64,000 bases of DNA from a virus: IMG/VR virus record IMGVR_UViG_3300017963_000217, positions 1-64,000 of that record; one strand, 5' to 3'. The notes under the pieces are model-generated. The model was given only the letters and a program-made list of their open reading frames with translations, ran no database searches and had not been told where the DNA came from. Position 1 is the first letter of the stretch. Each line of letters begins with the position of its first letter. Of the stretch, positions 2,995 to 59,713 are shown piece after piece. The position numbers and the translations under genes were made by a program.

Positions 2995-3731
2995 ATGAAA
3001 TTCTTATTACCAATACAAAAACAACAATATGGTCCAGCAAAAGATTTATTTTGCGCAAAATGTTTAACCCATGAAAGGCATTTCGAAGGGGGAGGGAGTT
3101 GGTCTCCAGATTTATGTCCATGTGGATGTGAGGACACTATTATATGGCACAAAATGAGTTTATCACAAAAATTTATAGCTCAAAAAGTTTATTGGGAAAA
3201 TGAAGAGAAAATAAAGGATATTCAAGATGGATAAACTGGAAAAAGTTAAAAAAATAGAATATCTAAAGGATCATTCCGCATGTACAGACCTACAGCGAAA
3301 TGCGCTTGGAAAGATGTTTCAGAGAACACTACGAGAAATGTTCGATGAGTTGTGCGAGGAATATAATATTTGTAACATATGTGGTAAAGATTTAAAGATG
3401 AATCAAAAGCTAATGATCGATCATTATCCAAGCACATTTGTTTATAGAAATATTTGCCCAGATTCAGAATGTAAATATAATAAAATCTTAATAAGAAGGC
3501 TACGAGAACAACCTTTTTAAATGCAGGAGAATAATATGAACAGACCACGGTATATTAAAGTTAGATTACATGGTGGAAATAGTTATATTCAACCTGTCAG
3601 CGAGATATTTACAGCAATAGATGGCGAGTTAGACGGTCTGTGTATAGGAGATAAAATAACATTAGATTTTGAGGCTGTGGATATTACGGACGAAGAGTAT
3701 GAAAATTTACCAGAATTTGAGGGGCATTAAA

Positions 3732-4426
3732 ATGAAATTAAGAATTAAGGATATTAAGTTTTATATTAAAAGAAAATATGCTGATATAAGAAATTTAGAT
3801 ATGGGGGGGGGTATCAAAAGCTATTTTGGAATAAAGATAATATTATAGAATTTTGGCTAGAGGGATTCAATAATGAAGGTCTTGACAAAGCCTTTGTTCA
3901 TCTACATGAGATATATAAAAATATTTTGCGAGAAGATCCACAATGGCATTATTTTTACGAAGATCACTATAGTTTAATTAGATGTTCTTACAAGTATTGT
4001 TATAGGGTTAAGAAATATCTTGATGATAATAATATAAGATATGAATGGCCTATAAAAACATGGAATGAAAACACATACATGACTTGTGAGTATAAGCATA
4101 TTTACACTGAATTATTTCATTTATTTTCCACCTTGGTTATGGAAATGTATGAAAAGGATGATGGTATCTATTTATATCACGCATCTGATAGGATTATACA
4201 TCCATTTCTAAATCATGCATTGTATCTAGCAGTTATATCTGGACAAACAGAGTGGTATGAAGAACGGGGGTTTGACGTACAGGAGTGGGAATCTATAAAA
4301 ATGATGGATTTAGCCAGAGGTAGGGCTCACCATATAGGTGTGATAGTCGGTGAAAAGAATGTAATAAAAAGAATCACTGAACGAGAGATGGAAAAAGAAA
4401 AGGAGGGTCTAGCAAATTCGGAATAA
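3732..4426 (+). pseudogene. hypothetical protein frameshifted at a G9 tract (3803-3811)
   Basis: ATG3732 frame stops soon after the G run; the frame of ORF 3926-4426 is open from 3785; one extra G joins them. Confidence 0.55.
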
Positions 4427-6038: not shown

Positions 6039-6484
6039 ATAATTAAGGAGTATTTATTATGGGATGGTGTTCAGGAACACGGATATTTGACGCCTTTTGT
6101 AGCATAATGTTTGATCCAGAAAATACAGATTTCAACGAAATTTTAAAGCAGTTTATAGAAGAACTTGAATATATGGATTGGGATTGTCATCGGGATAGCG
6201 CTTATTGGGACACTCCCGTTGTCCAAAAAGCTATGAGGGAATTACATCCAGATTGGTTTGAGGACAAAGAAATTTAATCAGTGGTTTAATTTGGATTAAT
6301 AACTGTTAACTTATATGTTGTGCGCCATAGCCAAATAGATAGACACTGAGGGGGGAGATGGGACACGATGTATTTATGAATAGGTTAAGAACAGATATTA
6401 ATAAGAAACATGAAGTAATGCATCAACACCGATAATAAACTATCCATTTATAATAGAGGATTTATATTTTATTAAGGAGGGCAC

Positions 6485-6544
6485 ATGAAATTTTTTGTGC
6501 ATAATAGCGATGCCTTTTAGTTAAATTTATAACTAGGAGGTATC
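6485..6544 (+). promoter_or_regulatory. leader peptide MKFFVHNSDAF-amber (6485-6520) with hairpin sequestering the SD of ORF 6548
   Basis: own SD AAGGAGG; GATGCCTTTTAGTTA (6509-6523) pairs over 15 bp (incl. G-U) with TAACTAGGAGGTATC (6530-6544). Confidence 0.7.
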
Positions 6545-6547
6545 ATT

Positions 6548-7120
6548 ATGTATATCATAGAACCATATAAGGCAAAAATTCGTCTTATAAGTAATTTGAA
6601 TGGTCTTGTAGAGGTGTATCCTAACTACGAGTCCTTTCTTAATAATTTAACCTACGATTTCATAGATAAACGCATTGTAACCACTTTCAAAGATTGGCCG
6701 AATGTTAACTGGTGGTTATGGGGATTAAGGGAATCAAGATACGAACTTTTCGTTGTCCGTGACGAGTTCGGCAGTGTTTTTAGTCGCACAGAAATTTATA
6801 ACGACTTTAAAGAAATACGCGCTAAAAAACATACCTCTAAATGGATCGAATTTTGGAATCGCAGATATGATTTTGTATATAGATATACACCGGTTCCTCG
6901 TACAGGTAAAATAAGAAGTCATTTCGGTAATTATTATAAACGACCTAAAACTACGCAAGAGCGTAGATGGTCTTTTGCTCATGTGAAATACGTAAGAGGT
7001 AAAAGACGTTCTCATGTGCTACCCAATGTTTGGGATGACAAACAGAGAGGTGACATAGATAACAGAAAATGTTGGAAAAACAAAAAAATAAAAAAGCAGT
7101 GGATGAAAAATCTTGGTTAA
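6548..7120 (+). CDS. basic phage hypothetical protein (PKTTQERR / LPNVWDD / KKQW C-terminus)
   Basis: 190-aa ORF with strong SD and Arg/Lys/Trp-rich C-terminal region. Confidence 0.65.
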   Translation: MYIIEPYKAKIRLISNLNGLVEVYPNYESFLNNLTYDFIDKRIVTTFKDWPNVNWWLWGLRESRYELFVVRDEFGSVFSRTEIYNDFKEIRAKKHTSKWIEFWNRRYDFVYRYTPVPRTGKIRSHFGNYYKRPKTTQERRWSFAHVKYVRGKRRSHVLPNVWDDKQRGDIDNRKCWKNKKIKKQWMKNLG

Positions 7121-7238: not shown

Positions 7239-7312
7239 GCGGGCATAGCTCAGTGGTAGAGCATCTGGTTGCCATCCAGAATACGGGAGTTCGATTCTCC
7301 TTGTCCGCTCCA
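7239..7312 (+). tRNA. tRNA-Gly(GCC)
   Basis: cloverleaf GCGGGCA/TGTCCGC, anticodon loop TTGCCAT, TTCGA, encoded CCA. Confidence 0.95.
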
Positions 7313-7658: not shown

Positions 7659-7669
7659 AAGGAGTAGAC

Positions 7670-7723
7670 ATGACATAGATTCATAAAATGGAATATGGGT
7701 AGGTTGCCAGAGGGCCTCCTTGA
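7670..7723 (+). promoter_or_regulatory. leader ORF with two in-frame amber codons ending RGPP-TGA (putative arrest peptide / attenuator)
   Basis: SD AAGGAG; ATG ACA TAG ATT CAT AAA ATG GAA TAT GGG TAG GTT GCC AGA GGG CCT CCT TGA; CTCCTTG complementary to downstream SD CAAGGAG. Confidence 0.7.
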
Positions 7724-7769
7724 ATATTGTCTTAAAAATAAAAATAAAAATTAACAAGGAGACAATATC

Positions 7770-8072
7770 ATGAGACCAAAAATGAAAGAACTTAAATACT
7801 GGCTTATTACCCATGCAACGGAAATCAGAGAAACAAGAAAATTACTAAAAGATGCTCAGAGGAATAGTAAAGCTACTTGGAGATTTCGAGGAGATATAAT
7901 TAGAATGGTTCCAGAGTATAGGCACCATCATATTGCATATTCTGAAATGAAAGGTAGATCTAGAGAACAAATAGAACGTCCCAGAGAAGACAACCTCCCC
8001 AATGAAAATTGGATTGAGGAAATCAAAAAGGAATACTGGGATGAACCAAAGACTTTATGTGTTAGTACGTAA
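7770..8072 (+). CDS. hypothetical protein (RHHHIAYSEMKGRSREQIE motif)
   Basis: 100-aa ORF with SD AAGGAG, overlapping the Pth2-like gene. Confidence 0.7.
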   Translation: MRPKMKELKYWLITHATEIRETRKLLKDAQRNSKATWRFRGDIIRMVPEYRHHHIAYSEMKGRSREQIERPREDNLPNENWIEEIKKEYWDEPKTLCVST

Positions 8073-8331
8073 AGATTTGCCCAAGTCCTATCAAGCTGTT
8101 CAGGCTGGTCATGCAGTAGCTGAATGGTTATTGTATGATCAGTCCTGGCAAAATGAAACACTTGTCTATCTGGGAGTGAATAACGAAAACGAATTATTGG
8201 ATTGGAAAGAGAGATTGGATTTTAATAATATAAAGCACGCGTCATTTAGAGAGCCTGATATAGGAGATCAACTGACTGCAATAGCTACTTTGTCCGACGG
8301 GAAAATTTTTAAAAAGTTGAAATTAATATAA
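8041..8331 (+). CDS. peptidyl-tRNA hydrolase 2 (Pth2)-like protein
   Basis: LYVLVRKDL...QAVQAGHA...LVYL...F.EPDIGDQLTAIA; the canonical GK lysine is not evident. Confidence 0.75.
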   Translation: MNQRLYVLVRKDLPKSYQAVQAGHAVAEWLLYDQSWQNETLVYLGVNNENELLDWKERLDFNNIKHASFREPDIGDQLTAIATLSDGKIFKKLKLI

Positions 8332-8406
8332 GCGCCTGTAGCATAGTGGCTAATGCAGCGGATTCTAAACCCGCTTACAAGGGTTCAATTCCCTTCGGGC
8401 GCTCCA
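8332..8406 (+). tRNA. amber suppressor tRNA (anticodon CUA), Gly-like acceptor stem
   Basis: GCGCCTG TA GCAT AGTGGCTA ATGC A GCGGA TTCTAAA CCCGC TTAC AAGGG TTCAATT CCCTT CGGGCGC T CCA; CTA at 8365-8367 centred in a 7-nt loop. Confidence 0.88.
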
Positions 8407-8814: not shown

Positions 8815-8885
8815 GCGGGCATAGCATAGTGGTAATGCGGGAGGATTCCAACCTCTTGACCGGGGTTCGATTCCCCGTGTCCGCT
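8815..8885 (+). tRNA. tRNA-Gly(TCC), CCA not encoded (followed by CAA)
   Basis: GCGGGCA/TGTCCGC, GGAGG-ATTCCAA-CCTCT. Confidence 0.92.
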
Positions 8886-8909
8886 CAATAACCATAGGGG
8901 AGAGAGAAA

Positions 8910-29977: not shown

Positions 29978-32900
29978 TTGGGGATAATTGATATTTATGA
30001 TAACATAGATGTTGTCATGGAACAGGGTACTAATCTGATCGAATACTATAGAAGTGATCCTGTTATGGCAGCGTATGATCTTTTAAAGGTGGATTTAGCG
30101 CCTGTACAGCGTTTGATATTGCGTGATATGTGGTTTAAGAATTTCACCATTACTGTAGCTGGGAGAGGTTGTGGGAAATCGGCGGACATAAATAGTTTGT
30201 CTTTTGTTGATGGTAAAGGGGTGTGTTATTTACGTGAAGAGTTTGATACTATACCTACATTTTTGCGAGATGGAGAAACTTTAGAGATAAACTCCGGCAA
30301 TAGTATATATACTTCTGAGGGGTTTAAACCTATAAAGAGGGTGTCGTTAGAGAAAAGGATTGAGGGTATTAAACTTACTACCAAAATAGGGTTAGAAAAT
30401 AAAGGTAGTAAACATCATCCAGTACTTACTATAAATGAAGGCGGTGATTTTTATTATAAACAACTGCAAGATTTTGAAGTAGGTGATTATGTGTGTATTC
30501 AACGAGGACAAAACACTTTTGGTGAAAATGAAATGCCGATTGACGATGCATATTTAATAGGGTTGTTTATTGGCGACGGTATGATTGTAGACACATATAA
30601 TCATCAAGATATAACTACCTCAGATGATTATATCATAAGTTATTGTGCTGATTATTGTGATAAGTACAACATATCGTATAGAATAGATAAAGATAAAAGA
30701 ACTGATAGTACTGTTAAAATAATATTCAAACAATTCGATTGGTTTTTTGATAAATATAATATAAAGCGGTGCCTTTCATACGATAAAGAAGTACCTTACA
30801 ATATACGTACTTTAAGTGAGAGTACTCAAGTTGAATTTTTACGTGGACTTTTTGATACTGACGGTGGGTTTGAGAGTAATGGTGTAGTTACGCTTTGTTC
30901 TGCGTCGGAAACTCTTATTAAAGAAGTTCAAATGATGTTATTAAATTTTGGAATTATAGGCAGTATTAGAGAGAAGAAAACAAAATCAAAATTTGGCAAA
31001 TCCTTTATACTAAGTATATCTGGCGATGATATTAAACTGTTCAGTGAATTTATAGGGTTTAATTTATATCGCAAGCAGAATTTACTGGATAGATATATAA
31101 AGTCAAATAAATTTAACACTAATAAGAATATTATACCGTTTATTAAAAATACTATAGTAAAGGATTTAGCAAAGAAATATGGTAGTTTTAGTTCTTTTAG
31201 TAGATTGTTTTCAAACACAAGGTATAGGTTTGATGACGGGAATAGAAAGAATTTGTCCTATGACATTTTAAATAAAATAGTTAATGTTGTAGAACTATAC
31301 AGCACAGACCCAGTTATATACAATAAATTGTTGAAAATTAGGAACAGAAATTACTATTTTGATGTAGTAAAGTCCGTAGATAAATGGTCAGGTGATTGTT
31401 ACGACTTCGAAATGGATATGGGTATTGATGTCGAACCTAATTATTTTTGTAATGGATTTATAAACCACAATACATTTCTCCTTGGAGTTAATGCTGTATT
31501 ACATGCACTGTTATATCCTGGATATAGGGTAGGTTTGATGGGCCCTGGTTTTAGGCAGAGCCTTGTATTATCAGACTCTTACACTACATTTTGGACGGAT
31601 GACGGTCTCAAATCTTCGCCGATAGAATTCTATAATTCAATAAAAGAAGGCGAAACGCTAGTACAATCCGATGTATCACAAAATCGCATTATTAGTAAGT
31701 GGAAAAATCCTGACAGGGCTTGTAGATATATTAAAACTAATAAAGGGTTTGAGTTGGCTGGTACAGTAGATCATGCCATAAAGGTACTAGATGGTGATAA
31801 TAATATAATATTTAAGGATTTACAAGACATAACTGAAAATGATTACATAGTAATTAGACATGGTTTCAATTATTTTGGCAATAATAATTCTTTGCCTAAA
31901 TTTGATTTTGATCTGAATTGGCGTACAAAGAATTGTAGAATACCCACTGAACTAACACCTGATCTATCATATTGGATGGGATTGTTGGTGGGGGATGGAT
32001 GTATTTCTATAAGCGCCACTAAAAGAAAGCAGCGTGTGAATTTTACTAATGAAGATATGGAGTTGTTAAAAAGTTTTGAGAATCTTTTAGTGGAATATTT
32101 TGTTGATGATGTTGATAATATAGATGTTAGAGACAGAAAACATAATAAAGGTTTTGATATAACTTATTTTAGTAAAAAACTAGTTCAGTTCTTATTGACT
32201 TGTGGTTTTACTAATACTACTGCTTTAGATAAAAAAGTTCCATACGTAATAAAGCGGGCTAATAGAGATAATATATGTTCTTTTTTATCTGGGCTTTTTG
32301 ATACGGATGGTCATTGTTACATACAGGATTATGATCACTATAATTCTTGTGAAGTTTCTTTAAATACCAGCTCCAGACAACTTGCTAATGAAGTACAATC
32401 AATTTTGTTGAATATAGGTATAGTTTCTTATGTCGGTATTAGTAAAAAAGCTGGCAAAAGAAAGCTTAATGGTAGAACCATACACTCTACATGTGCAACT
32501 GCGTATAAAGTTAGGATTACCGGTGTCCATAATATAATAAAGTTCAGAGATAATGTTGATTTTAGATGCGAACATAAATCTAATAAACTAAATTATTTTA
32601 TATCAAATTTAAAGAATAGACGTAGGAGTACCAGTATCTGTGTTGAATTGGGAGTAACAAAAGATATAATAGACCGTGATCCTGATAAATTTTTGAGTTA
32701 CAGAAAGTCAGGGTTGTATTTTGTAAGAATGAAGGAGTCGGATTATTTCTTTGCTCCTACGATAGATGCCGAAGTGGAAAACGAACATTGTTATTTTGCC
32801 GGTGGGTTTATAAACCACAATTCAAAATTTATTTTTAATGAAGTAGAAAAGATATATCAGAGGTCACATATAGTAAGAGAAGCTTGTGTAAAAAGACCTA

Positions 32901-34276
32901 CTAGAGGTGCAGACACCTATTCTTTGGAATTCCGTGGTACTGATAGATCGAACGGAAGTTATATAGCTGCTTTACCGGTTGGTGTTGATGGTTCTAAAAT
33001 TAGGGGGTCTCGATTTTATTTAATAGAAATAGACGAGTTAGCTCAGATGCAACCAGAAATTATTGATATGGTAATTAGACCTATGGCGGCTGTTTCTTCA
33101 GAGCCCATGCAGAGAGTTAGAGAGCGTGAACGGCAAAAGGAACTAATAAAACGAGGATTAGCATCTGAAGAGGATTTTGAAGGCGAAGCTGCTAATAAAA
33201 TGATTATGGCTTCATCTGGATATTTTAAATTCAATCATATGTGGGACAGGATGAGGGCGTATTGGAAGGCCATGAAAGATCCTAAGATTGCGGATAGATA
33301 CGCCGTACACCAAGTACCATATCAACTTATGCCAGAAGCCTTTCTTGATATGGAAAATATTAATTCTTCTAAATTACAAATGTCCACTATAGAGTTTAGG
33401 ATGGAGTATGAAGCCGCTATGGTATCTGATAGTGATGGGTTCTTTAAGGCTTCCATGCTTGATGCTTGCACCATCGGTAGTGATTTTAGTTTACGAATAG
33501 TGGGCGAGCCTGGTAAAGAATATGTAATGGGGGTTGATCCCAATCAAGGTGGGTCTGCCGCTTGTGGTGTTGTGGTTATAGAAGTGGGCGATCCTCATAA
33601 GTTAGTCTATATAAATGAGATTAAGGGCAAAACTACTCAAAAAATGACTGCGGCAATACAAGAGTTATGTGAAAATTTTAATATCGTTAAGATATTTATG
33701 GATTCTCAGGGGGGAGGAAAGCCTATAAAAGATTTACTACAGGAGGGTTATGGTAATAAAACCCCCATACTTGACATAGACGATGATTTAACTAGAAGCC
33801 ATTCGGGAAAACGTATATTGAAGATGGTTAATCCAAGTGTACAATGGATAAATGATGCTAATTTTGATACACTAGCTCTTATAGAGCATAAAGAAATCCG
33901 TTTTCCTGTAATGCCTAAGTCAGAAAAAACTGATAAAGCAGAGGATAAGACTGACGCGATATCTGAAAAATTATATGAGAAAGTAAAAGTACTTAAATCT
34001 CAAATGTTGAATATAGTTGTTACTCAAACAGCTAGAGGATCTAGGCATTTTGATACGCCTACTAAAGGACAAAACAAAGACCTTTATTCAGCTCTAATAC
34101 TTGCATGTTGGGGTGTTCGCGAGATGGATAGACAATCTATGGAGCGCGTACAAAAACTACATGCACAAGGGTTAGTGAGACCTCACAGTAAAGGATCTCA
34201 ATTTGCGCAGGCTGTGAACGCTGGCCCAGGTGAATCGTGGATGGAAAATGCTATTCCAAAGAAAAGAATAAAGTAA
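29978..34276 (+). CDS. terL: terminase large subunit containing two inteins (mature about 580 aa)
   Basis: GRGCGK|T Walker A, IRG.R...IEIDE Walker B, MGVDP nuclease Asp, KDLYSAL. Confidence 0.92.
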   Translation: MGIIDIYDNIDVVMEQGTNLIEYYRSDPVMAAYDLLKVDLAPVQRLILRDMWFKNFTITVAGRGCGKSADINSLSFVDGKGVCYLREEFDTIPTFLRDGETLEINSGNSIYTSEGFKPIKRVSLEKRIEGIKLTTKIGLENKGSKHHPVLTINEGGDFYYKQLQDFEVGDYVCIQRGQNTFGENEMPIDDAYLIGLFIGDGMIVDTYNHQDITTSDDYIISYCADYCDKYNISYRIDKDKRTDSTVKIIFKQFDWFFDKYNIKRCLSYDKEVPYNIRTLSESTQVEFLRGLFDTDGGFESNGVVTLCSASETLIKEVQMMLLNFGIIGSIREKKTKSKFGKSFILSISGDDIKLFSEFIGFNLYRKQNLLDRYIKSNKFNTNKNIIPFIKNTIVKDLAKKYGSFSSFSRLFSNTRYRFDDGNRKNLSYDILNKIVNVVELYSTDPVIYNKLLKIRNRNYYFDVVKSVDKWSGDCYDFEMDMGIDVEPNYFCNGFINHNTFLLGVNAVLHALLYPGYRVGLMGPGFRQSLVLSDSYTTFWTDDGLKSSPIEFYNSIKEGETLVQSDVSQNRIISKWKNPDRACRYIKTNKGFELAGTVDHAIKVLDGDNNIIFKDLQDITENDYIVIRHGFNYFGNNNSLPKFDFDLNWRTKNCRIPTELTPDLSYWMGLLVGDGCISISATKRKQRVNFTNEDMELLKSFENLLVEYFVDDVDNIDVRDRKHNKGFDITYFSKKLVQFLLTCGFTNTTALDKKVPYVIKRANRDNICSFLSGLFDTDGHCYIQDYDHYNSCEVSLNTSSRQLANEVQSILLNIGIVSYVGISKKAGKRKLNGRTIHSTCATAYKVRITGVHNIIKFRDNVDFRCEHKSNKLNYFISNLKNRRRSTSICVELGVTKDIIDRDPDKFLSYRKSGLYFVRMKESDYFFAPTIDAEVENEHCYFAGGFINHNSKFIFNEVEKIYQRSHIVREACVKRPTRGADTYSLEFRGTDRSNGSYIAALPVGVDGSKIRGSRFYLIEIDELAQMQPEIIDMVIRPMAAVSSEPMQRVRERERQKELIKRGLASEEDFEGEAANKMIMASSGYFKFNHMWDRMRAYWKAMKDPKIADRYAVHQVPYQLMPEAFLDMENINSSKLQMSTIEFRMEYEAAMVSDSDGFFKASMLDACTIGSDFSLRIVGEPGKEYVMGVDPNQGGSAACGVVVIEVGDPHKLVYINEIKGKTTQKMTAAIQELCENFNIVKIFMDSQGGGKPIKDLLQEGYGNKTPILDIDDDLTRSHSGKRILKMVNPSVQWINDANFDTLALIEHKEIRFPVMPKSEKTDKAEDKTDAISEKLYEKVKVLKSQMLNIVVTQTARGSRHFDTPTKGQNKDLYSALILACWGVREMDRQSMERVQKLHAQGLVRPHSKGSQFAQAVNAGPGESWMENAIPKKRIK
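30179..31471 (+). mobile_element. intein 1 (431 aa, LAGLIDADG) in Walker A of terL
   Basis: starts Ser after GCGK; LIGLFIGDG, FLRGLFDTDG; ends FINHN followed by Thr. Confidence 0.9.
31559..32821 (+). mobile_element. intein 2 (421 aa, LAGLIDADG) in terL
   Basis: starts Ser after GPGFRQ; block B GTVDH; MGLLVGDG, FLSGLFDTDG; ends FINHN followed by Ser. Confidence 0.9.
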
Positions 34277-58105: not shown

Positions 58106-59713
58106 ATGGGAAAAAAATATACTATAGGATATATAGAGGAAAATTTTAATAAAGAAGGTTATAAATTATTAACTAGTGAATACAATGGGTGCAAACAAAA
58201 GCTAGATTTTATATGTCCTAATGGCCATAGACATAATATAAGTTTTGATAAATGGTTAAAAGGCCAAAGATGTTATTACTGTAATGGTAATGTGAGATTG
58301 AGTAACACAGAAGTAAAAAGAGAATTTGAAGAAAATGGATATATATTATTATCTCAATATAAAAACAGCGGCACTAAATTGAAATATAAATGCCCTCAAG
58401 GCCATATAGGTGAGATGAAGTGGGATCATTTTAGGGACGGTCATAGATGTCCAGAATGTTCGGGGAATAAACCTATTAGTAGAGAAAAGATATCCGCTAG
58501 ATTTAGCTCAATGGGTTATAAATTTTTAGATAAGATAAATAACAACGGTATTAGACGATTGTCTTATGTTTGCGATAAAGGTCATTATGGAGAAACCACA
58601 TGGTATAACTTTAACAAAGGTATAAGATGTAATGAATGCGCGGGCAAAGCAAAAAAGACGGTGGATTTTTTACGAAATGAATTTAACACAGAGGGATACG
58701 CACTTGTAACAGAAAATTATGAAAACTGTCACCAAAAATTACATTTAGTATGCCCTAATGGTCATAATTATTATGTATCATGGGATAATTGGAATAATAA
58801 AAACTCTCGTTGTACGAAATGTAGTGAATGGGGCAGATCTAATCAAGAAACTGAGTTATTCGAGTTTTTGAATGGTATATGTGACAAAATAATTAGAAAT
58901 GATAGATCATTAATAAGCCCTTATGAGATTGATTTTGTAATACCTGAAAAGAATGTTGCTATAGAATATTGCGGCTTATACTGGCATTCTGAATTAGCTG
59001 GTAGAAATAGGAATTATCATATAGATAAATTAGATAAATGTCAATCCAAGGGTTATAGACTTATAACTATTTTTGAGGATGAATTTGTAAATCGTAAAGA
59101 AATTGTTTTTTCAAGGCTCAAAACTATTCTTGGTTTAAATAGTAATAAGATATTTGCTAGAGATTGTTTAGTAAAAGAGATATCTACTAATGAGGCATCC
59201 GAGTTTTGTAATAAACATCATTTACAAGGATATCACGGTTCATCAATTAAAATAGGTGCTTTTTATAAAAATAAATTAGTATCAGTAATGACTTTTTCTA
59301 AACCATCTATAGCTAAAGGTAGTAAATATAAAGAAGATTTTATTTGGGAACTGTCTAGGTTTTGTTCCATCCAAGACTATATTATAATTGGTATAGCTTC
59401 AAAGTTATTAAAATTTTTTGAAAGAAATTACAAATGGAATGAGATATTTTCATATGCAGATAGAAGATGGTCTGATGGTAATTTATATATAAAAATGGGA
59501 TTTGAATATTCTAGTATTACTACTCCTAACTATTGGTATTTGAGTAAACAATCAAGAATTCATAGATTTGCTTTGCGTAAAACAAAAGAGGATCCTAAGG
59601 ATCAAACAGAATGGCAAATAAGAAAATATGATGGTTGGAATAGAATATGGGATTGTGGGAATTTGAAATATAAAAAAATTAATGCCTCATATTTAAGCAA
59701 CTATGTTGCTTAG
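58106..59713 (+). mobile_element. free-standing endonuclease with Zn-ribbon repeats and Vsr/EDxHD-like domain (Hef-like)
   Basis: CPNGH...C..C repeats; EIDFVIPE.NVAIEYCGLYWHS; LITIFEDE; SYADRRWS, IWDCG. Confidence 0.75.

Follow-up and report, generated by a model that had tools for sequence, protein, structure and literature searches.

A candidate leader switch of large phages keyed to their own amber-suppressor tRNA

Among the signals to which known leader and arrest-peptide switches respond are amino acids, antibiotics, protein secretion and membrane insertion; to our knowledge, none of these switches senses the read-through of a stop codon by a dedicated tRNA. A leader that may do so lies in the window analysed here, which consists of the first 64 kb of the 99,386-bp viral record IMGVR_UViG_3300017963_000217 (G000; estimated completeness ~55%). 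It is a short upstream open reading frame (uORF) at positions 7670-7723, in which two in-frame UAG (amber) codons precede an R-G-P-P motif of the arrest-peptide type, and it is followed by a hairpin over the Shine-Dalgarno (SD) sequence of an open reading frame (ORF) designated ORF-X, by a gene resembling peptidyl-tRNA hydrolase 2 (Pth2) and by a tRNA with the anticodon CUA. As a whole, the element is best explained as a switch of translation that answers to the amber-suppressor tRNA of the phage itself, a reading to which a probability of roughly 0.78 is given. The design is kept in more than 100 unrelated phage sequences and looks like a natural switch that has apparently not been described.

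The nearest counterparts are the RAPP/RGPP arrest peptides, which include ApdA, ApdP and ApcA, SecM with its RAGP, and the RAPP/RGPP uORFs of Streptomyces (PMC12992588; PMC10951233; PMC7897499). Like these, the phage leader is a small uORF that ends in or contains R-[GA]-P-P, its motif adjoins an RNA structure masking the next ribosome-binding site, and its peptide ceases to be conserved past the point of arrest. Unlike these, it places the motif behind one or two in-frame stops, so that its input would be read-through and not secretion or insertion. Whereas monitoring substrates have an N-terminal signal or membrane segment through which force can release them, the leader has 17 positions without any signal, membrane or hydrophobic segment, and its arrest is a prediction. 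Also, in place of the Sec/YidC gene that lies downstream in such systems, it is followed by ORF-X and the Pth2-like gene, in phages beside a suppressor tRNA.

The attenuation of trp, his and leu resembles the leader in another respect, in that progress of the ribosome depends on one charged tRNA and selects an RNA conformation controlling the downstream genes. In the leader, however, regulation would rest on a stop codon for which there is a dedicated suppressor, and a short supply of that suppressor would cause termination instead of pausing; more tRNA would turn the genes on, and control would fall on translation initiation. Indeed, a test for a trp-type attenuator found no terminator-like site in 7660-7770, where the hairpin is followed by a start codon and not by a U tract. 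The RF2 gene, prfB, shares with the leader an early in-frame stop that gauges termination against alternative decoding, but its stop is UGA, a +1 frameshift provides the escape and the gene under control is that of the release factor, whereas the leader would use suppressor read-through and control other genes. UAG-in-leader switches have also been engineered with the tna and trp leaders for genetic code expansion; as in the phage leader, passage beyond the UAG is required for what lies downstream, multiplexed UAGs lower the leak, and the base after the UAG and Pro-rich ends have been considered (PMC6412442). Those switches are man-made, act through Rho-dependent transcription termination and depend on an unnatural amino acid, whereas the phage leader is natural and would combine an SD hairpin with the phage's own tRNA as input. 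Full-text literature searches returned no description of a natural suppressor-gated leader, the engineered switch (PMC6412442) being the nearest, which agrees with a preliminary description of the locus, made from the letters of the window, that knew of no account of such a circuit.

The leader, like all features of the module given below, is on the plus strand. Its SD (AAGGAG, 7659-7664) is located 5 nt 5′ of the ATG and directly after the TAA of a 51-aa zinc-ribbon ORF, and a comparable SD is found in most related leaders. With the two ambers read, the frame of 17 sense positions is M-T-UAG-I-H-K-M-E-Y-G-UAG-V-A-R-G-P-P-UGA. The first gating amber is codon 3 (7676-7678) and is followed by ATT; the second is codon 11 (7700-7702), with Y-G before it and GTT after it. 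The R-G-P-P motif (AGA GGG CCT CCT, 7709-7720) is in frame with the leader ATG, and the stop TGA (7721-7723) stands immediately 3′ of it. What the preliminary description had stated of the leader, the pairings, the downstream ORFs and the tRNA was found again in the letters. The two-amber layout is common to the six closest relatives (L168, L169, L170, L171, L187 and L197), and the first gate lies at codon 3 in 19 of 43 leaders. The close relatives keep the series Y-G-UAG-[V/G/I]-[A/S]-R-G-P-P, and R-G-P-P itself is invariant, while the sequence beyond it diverges freely. Nucleotide identity among them is 0.82 in the leader and 0.73 in ORF-X, falling to 0.47 in the hairpin loop and 0.40 in the upstream spacer.

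Within the record alone the leader pattern is not statistically remarkable, since one such leader occurs in 99 kb, and its significance therefore comes from comparison across loci. In a first comparison, ORF 7770 had a sole homologue in the viral collection, and that locus (L001) has the same layout as the window: an SD, an ATG, two in-frame TAGs, R-G-P-P encoded by CGT GGT CCT CCC and then an anti-SD, with an ORF-X homologue, a Pth2-like gene and a CUA tRNA downstream. A first set of 85 distinct loci was then collected via the Pth2-like protein; within 2.5-3 kb, 63 of them carry a CUA tRNA, three a UUA tRNA and one a UCA tRNA. A leader was defined as an ATG frame in which the first stop, of type S, is found at codon 15 or earlier, S alone is read through, and [RK]-x(0,1)-P-P follows within 30 codons. 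For S=TAG, the 800 nt preceding the Pth2-like gene contained 24 matches, or 0.36/kb as against 0.029/kb elsewhere, whereas the definitions with S=TAA and S=TGA stayed at background level in the same upstream regions. Most of these 'background' TAG matches turned out to be real leaders standing before ORF-X homologues downstream of the Pth2-like gene, which ties the leader to ORF-X; indeed, ORF-X is the gene that is always preceded by the leader.

The definition was applied unchanged to a fresh set of ORF-X loci from viral and metagenome contigs. Sequences sharing 95% identity or more with the first set had been removed, and 92 loci with enough upstream sequence were left. These scans used the narrower of two alignments (A3), the wide one (A2) being too divergent. 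In the 260 nt before ORF-X, 79 of the 92 non-redundant loci have a TAG-gated leader, one has a TAA-gated leader and none a TGA-gated one, while the background in the same loci is 2 TAG matches in 597 kb. On this out-of-sample result the possibility of a chance ORF is rejected. Nine of the 13 misses are variants ending in R-S-P, R-G-Q-P, R-A-S-P, R-G-P or I-P-P before the stop. A CUA tRNA is present in 53 of the 57 fresh leader loci having at least 700 nt of downstream flank. The preliminary description had proposed to test whether homologous loci share an SD-ATG, in-frame TAGs and the Pro-Pro motif and co-occur with CUA tRNAs, and had tied the whole unit to such a tRNA; both are borne out by these counts.

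Several lines of evidence indicate that the gating stops are read through. First, the Arg, Gly and Pro codons of the motif swap synonymously between loci, Arg being encoded by AGA (15), CGA (7), CGT (4), CGC (3) or AGG (2) and Pro by all four of its codons. Second, a gating TAG has a purine as its next base in 101 of 102 cases, compared with 61% for terminating TAGs of the same loci (p ~6e-21), and the codon that follows is ATT in 46% compared with 4.5% (p ~1e-35). A purine after UAG is, reportedly from work of 1983 by Bossi and by Miller and Albertini, the classical context for efficient amber suppression. Third, the type of gate follows the tRNA: UAA gates, present in the leaders of L105 and L212 and at the N-terminus of the Pth2-like protein in L027, are confined to loci that have a UUA tRNA, and the sole convincing UGA gate (L071) occurs in a locus with a UCA tRNA, 2.3 kb off on the opposite strand. 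The post-gate codon is ATT, GTT, ATA or GTA and almost never a canonical start, which argues against re-initiation; termination followed by re-initiation at this codon is rejected because start codons are rare there and because the gate type tracks the tRNA anticodon. Thus the comparison of loci, as far as sequences can do so, shows that the frame is translated through the stop and that the gate matches the anticodon, and the earlier proposal that R-G-P-P is reached only after the ambers have been read is supported by the same tests.

Recoding of TAG throughout the genome was also considered and is rejected. The record is densely filled with plus-strand genes in the standard code; the plus-strand ORF cover of 0.69-1.00 under table 11 becomes hardly higher when TAG is read through, and the 80 long ORFs of the 99-kb record stop at TAA (65), TAG (12) or TGA (3). 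TGA is thus a rare stop in this record, yet it is the leader's own stop. As a further observation on stop contexts, Pro-Pro, Tyr-Gly, Asp-Thr or Phe-Thr often precede the second amber in the leaders of L210, L131, L135, L222, L203 and L207. Pro and Gly at the last positions before a stop are said to weaken termination and would further favour read-through.

The second part of the element is the hairpin. Its 5′ arm, the anti-SD (7724-7733), starts directly 3′ of the leader stop and pairs with 7759-7768, the 3′ arm, which overlaps the ORF-X SD (AAGGAG, 7756-7761). Two exact complementarities can be read in this region: CTCCTTG (7716-7722) with CAAGGAG (7755-7761), and ATATTGTCT (7724-7732) with AGACAATAT (7760-7768). 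They are alternatives and not a single helix, because both use 7760-7761. In an alignment of seven sequences, namely the window and its six close relatives, the helix 7724-7733/7759-7768 is 100% paired and includes two compensatory pairs (C-G/A-U/U-A; A-U/G-C); its score was reached by 0 of 500 shuffles, and slid controls pair only 41-66%. Of the other pairing, the relatives retain the CUCC/GGAG core alone, without covariation, and it is rejected as the regulatory helix. The preliminary description had suggested a look for covariation of an anti-SD in homologues, and such covariation is present, but the pairing that it had named first is not the conserved one.

Pairing was also compared across 24 loci, by means of duplexes between the leader 3′ segment from the Pro codons onward and the 26 nt around the ORF-X start. 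The mean duplex energy is -14.3 kcal/mol with a leader's own ORF-X SD and -8.4 kcal/mol with the SDs of other loci, and the self value was attained in 0 of 20,000 permutations. The onset of pairing ranges from 3 nt before to 12 nt after the first Pro codon. By this comparison, the anti-SD pairing is shown to be locus-specific and maintained by selection.

From these features, a mechanism can be proposed. In the OFF state, ribosomes starting at the strong SD and ATG of the leader would meet UAG at codon 3 and again at codon 11; without efficient read-through, RF1 would release them more than 15 nt before the hairpin, and the 10-bp helix 7724-7733/7759-7768 would thus hold the SD of ORF-X closed. 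In the ON state, charged tRNA-CUA would outcompete RF1 at both ambers and bring the ribosome to R-G-P-P. There it is predicted to pause with the first CCT (7715-7717) in its P site and the second (7718-7720) in its A site, a position taken over from the RAPP peptides. The paused ribosome would cover the 5′ arm of the hairpin and free the SD, ORF-X would be translated, and the overlapping Pth2-like gene would follow by coupling. With two ambers in series, output would vary as about the square of the read-through efficiency and leak would be suppressed. The geometry, for which ribosome dimensions were taken from established knowledge, fits an ON switch: the helix takes in part of the SD and begins 4 nt beyond the Pro codon of the A site, a paused ribosome covers the RNA to ~7730, or most of the 5′ arm, and leaves the SD, 36 nt downstream of the A site, accessible, whereas a ribosome terminating at the second TAG extends only to ~7714. 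That a ribosome held at R-G-P-P uncovers the SD of the next gene, as the preliminary description had it, is supported on the side of the RNA by the locus-specific pairing and the compensatory pairs, while the effect of the ribosome we infer.

Arrest at R-G-P-P, the ON polarity and the purpose of the switch are likewise what we infer, and several points weigh against the proposed mechanism. The nascent chain at the stall would have 16 residues, compared with the longer published RGPP peptides, and R-G-P-P may not suffice for arrest. Many relatives end in plain [RK]-P-P and a stop, which may slow termination without true arrest. Single-sequence folding of the hairpin is not significantly more stable than that of shuffles (z -1.36). 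The record is ~55% complete, and further amber-containing targets may exist. Finally, the catalytic residues of Pth2, according to work on the S. solfataricus enzyme, are said to be the Asp of a D-A-G-x-T segment and the Lys of a G-K loop, and the phage Pth2-like family is without the Gly-Lys loop that would hold this Lys.

As to the purpose of a switch of this kind, our best guess is a role for ORF-X and the hydrolase that is required, or can be tolerated, only during active read-through, such as the recycling of peptidyl-tRNA from ribosomes that ran past stops; the switch may also be a simple timing lock. The preliminary description also proposed feedback through the operon's own tRNA and removal of the leader's peptidyl-tRNA by the Pth2-like enzyme, which would be further steps that the comparison of loci does not support. 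Alternatively, the same switch might be a negative-feedback governor, in which the Pth2-like enzyme and ORF-X deacylate or inactivate the suppressor tRNA and read-through limits itself, as RF2 does via its in-frame UGA. This purpose is considered unlikely. An amber sensor and a homologue of a tRNA-ester hydrolase do share one unit with the tRNA, the 12 TAG-terminated long ORFs imply that unchecked suppression could harm the phage, and the active-site region, unlike that of canonical Pth2, leaves room for an altered substrate. However, the substrate of canonical Pth2 is, by established knowledge, N-blocked aminoacyl-tRNA and not aminoacyl-tRNA, and the acceptor stems and discriminators of the suppressor tRNAs differ widely between loci, which speaks against a tRNA-specific enzyme.

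A different question is whether the ribosome truly arrests. In the contexts of ApcA, ApdP and SecM, in vivo as well as in the PURE system, RAPP and RGPP proved to be the most robust arrest cores and were refractory to EF-P, and RGPP gives the most robust arrest across four arrest-peptide contexts (PMC12992588). Among 43 leaders, the motif divides according to what follows it: where the frame continues, it is RGPP (8), RSPP (3) or RAPP (2), and where a stop follows immediately, it is mostly [RK]-P-P only (RPP 9, KPP 7, KKPP 3, RKPP 2) and not the full R-[GA]-P-P. Such a split, with R-[G/A/S]-P-P in open frames and [RK]-P-P before stops, is expected if holding the ribosome there is the selected function. 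The leader of the window unites RGPP with an immediate UGA. Its latter property and the short motifs of the immediately stopping leaders can equally be read as the marks of an ordinary coupling uORF with the same gating and no true arrest, in which a ribosome at the leader end transiently melts the hairpin and Pro-Pro somewhat prolongs termination; the same window even holds another uORF (6485-6544) that adjoins an SD hairpin but lacks an arrest motif. This explanation is nevertheless judged quite improbable, because the open-frame leaders nearly always have R-[GAS]-P-P, where only a stall could keep the ribosome over the anti-SD, and because in the six closest relatives the reading frame runs on past RGPP, RGPP is still invariant and conservation ends exactly at the motif.

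In phage lambda, the bar minigenes consist of two codons and cause peptidyl-tRNA to drop off the ribosome. That the TAGs of the leader are genuine stops, the product being such a minigene (M-T), the remainder untranslated RNA and RGPP a by-product of the anti-SD (CCUCC), is hardly credible: CCUCC inevitably gives Pro-Pro in one frame, TAG is otherwise used as a stop by the phage and a peptidyl-tRNA hydrolase homologue does lie downstream of M-T, but 79 of 92 independent loci have the motif in the frame set by ATG...TAG, synonymous codons alternate for its Arg and Gly, the conserved anti-SD helix follows the Pro codons instead of containing them, the gate is specifically UAG and becomes UAA or UGA along with the tRNA anticodon, and in 45 of 58 gated Pth2-like genes a conserved protein is possible only via stop read-through.

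These Pth2-like genes represent a second, independent architecture of stop gating. Where it is not coupled to ORF-X, the gene usually opens with M-[K/T]-UAG-[I/V]. It starts with M-x(0-7)-TAG in 53 of the 85 loci of the first set, chiefly as M-[K/T]-TAG-I, with the amber at codon 2-9; gates of any stop type number 58, and in 45 of these no other canonical start precedes the conserved core, so that the protein would be made only by read-through. Gated starts are found in L011, L013, L014, L048, L060 and about 50 other loci, and also in three cultured phages. Acinetobacter phage ME3 (L115) has a gated Pth2-like gene at 2495-2803 with a CUA tRNA 450 nt upstream; Serratia phage BF (L114) has an unannotated one at about 2480-2794; and in mycobacteriophage Bxz1 (L118) gp154 (about 3465-3845) opens with M-TAG-GTG, with a CUA tRNA 300 nt downstream. 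In Bxz1, the annotated GTG start directly 3′ of ATG-TAG is an alternative reading, and gene 155, described as 'tRNA-like', has the anticodon CUA. Beyond the Pth2-like genes, a gene of ~195 aa lies upstream of them in L015 (2396-2977), L056, L059, L085, L095 and L108 (about 1890-2490); it has a conserved Q-S-V-Y-[EQ]-H-G-[ILV]-S-V motif and an amber at codon 4-8, and gating thus extends beyond ORF-X and Pth2. A Pth2-like gene with a UUA tRNA nearby is also present in the TAG-recoding Prevotella Lak phages (L117, Lak-B4, 1847-1919), and in L003 a phage tmRNA gene (225-600) lies ~2.4 kb upstream of the module.

Taken more broadly, it seems somewhat probable that large phages possess a regulon of a few genes that is locked to the anticodon of the suppressor tRNA which they encode, and in which ORF-X is controlled via a stop-gated arrest leader and the Pth2-like hydrolase, with the ~195-aa gene in some phages, via a stop at codon 2-9, the whole acting as a natural sensor of the stop-decoding state of the cell. 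If so, the 'orphan' suppressor tRNAs of standard-code phages gain a defined target, and in recoded phages such as Lak the locked regulon could belong to the genetic-code switch. If the leader itself works as read here, it explains why standard-code phages keep suppressor tRNAs and makes the control of stop reassignment during infection directly testable, and the related forms in the cultured phages ME3, BF and Bxz1 can be tested now. ORF callers miss the leader, and in most relatives they also miss the hydrolase gene, as with the BF copy. On the practical side, such leaders would offer parts tuned by evolution for genetic code expansion, namely the amber context, double gating and an arrest output.

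ORF-X (7770-8072) encodes a protein of 100 aa, a helical hairpin with a conserved R-H-x-H-I-A-Y...G-R..E-Q-I-E block in the wide alignment. Its structure model has a predicted local distance difference test score (pLDDT) of 93.5. No Pfam or PHROG family and no homologue in the cultured-phage collection was found for it; Foldseek and VIA-align return only generic helical-hairpin matches for the fold (Z at most 7.8), and the protein atlas was uninformative. The Pth2-fold protein of 96 aa is encoded at 8041-8331, overlapping the end of ORF-X by 32 nt, an overlap from which the gene is probably translationally coupled to ORF-X. Against Pfam PTH2 (PF01981) it scores 21.5 bits (E 2.8e-4), under the gathering cut-off of 23 bits. 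Its model (pLDDT 94.9) finds the Pth2 structures 2zv3, 3erj, 1xty and 1q7s as top Foldseek matches (probability 1.00, template modelling score 0.75-0.80), and the family profile finds 2zv3, M. jannaschii Pth2, among the PDB sequences at E 8e-7. The call of a Pth2-like protein made from the letters therefore stands as to the fold, and needs this evidence because the Pfam score falls below the cut-off. In the phage family, E-P-D contains an invariant Asp that lines up with the Asp of Pth2, and R10, D12, Q21 and H24 are the other invariants. Cellular genomes gave four family matches only, and at least one of them (L111) is the same 425-kb contig as the viral-collection record L094; from these searches the family looks phage-specific.

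The CUA tRNA (8332-8406), an amber suppressor by its anticodon, begins at the base directly after the TAA of the Pth2-like gene. It was found by ARAGORN, scores 63.2 bits against the Rfam tRNA model, has an encoded CCA and U73, and folds as a canonical cloverleaf (-27 kcal/mol) whose anticodon stem is mismatched at its base (A31-C39). It belongs to a tRNA-rich stretch in which the leader module sits (Gly-GCC, CUA, Thr-GGU, Gly-UCC and Gln-CUG by ARAGORN). On comparison with 8815-8886 and 7239-7312, its closest relative is the phage's tRNA-Gly(UCC) (67%), with which it shares an identical D-arm, the G1-C2-G3 acceptor start and U73, and from this likeness it is probably a duplicated tRNA-Gly. 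Across loci, the suppressor tRNAs have unrelated acceptor stems and all four discriminator bases; the inserted residue is thus probably irrelevant, as expected of a gate.

In the rest of the record, an Rfam scan found tRNAs only, promoter and terminator scans gave nothing above expectation and nothing between the leader and ORF-X, and a search of the 99 kb for other amber-gated genes found none that is convincing, ORFs with an early stop being of the TAG (8), TAA (9) and TGA (5) types. The second small uORF of the window, in the region 6473-6547, has an SD (AAGGAGG), an ATG at 6485 and 11 codons with the stop TAG at 6518, and it extends into the 5′ arm of a hairpin of 15 bp (6509-6544), by which the SD of ORF 6548-7120 (PHROG 12793) is sequestered; having no arrest motif, it looks like plain uORF coupling. 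Further on, a 1432-aa ORF (29978-34276) with an intein splicing domain and LAGLIDADG homing-endonuclease domains (Pfam E 1.5e-19 and 5e-43) is a large phage protein interrupted by an intein, and a 535-aa ORF (58106-59713) with CapR-homology and Mom-family domains is a candidate DNA-modification protein.

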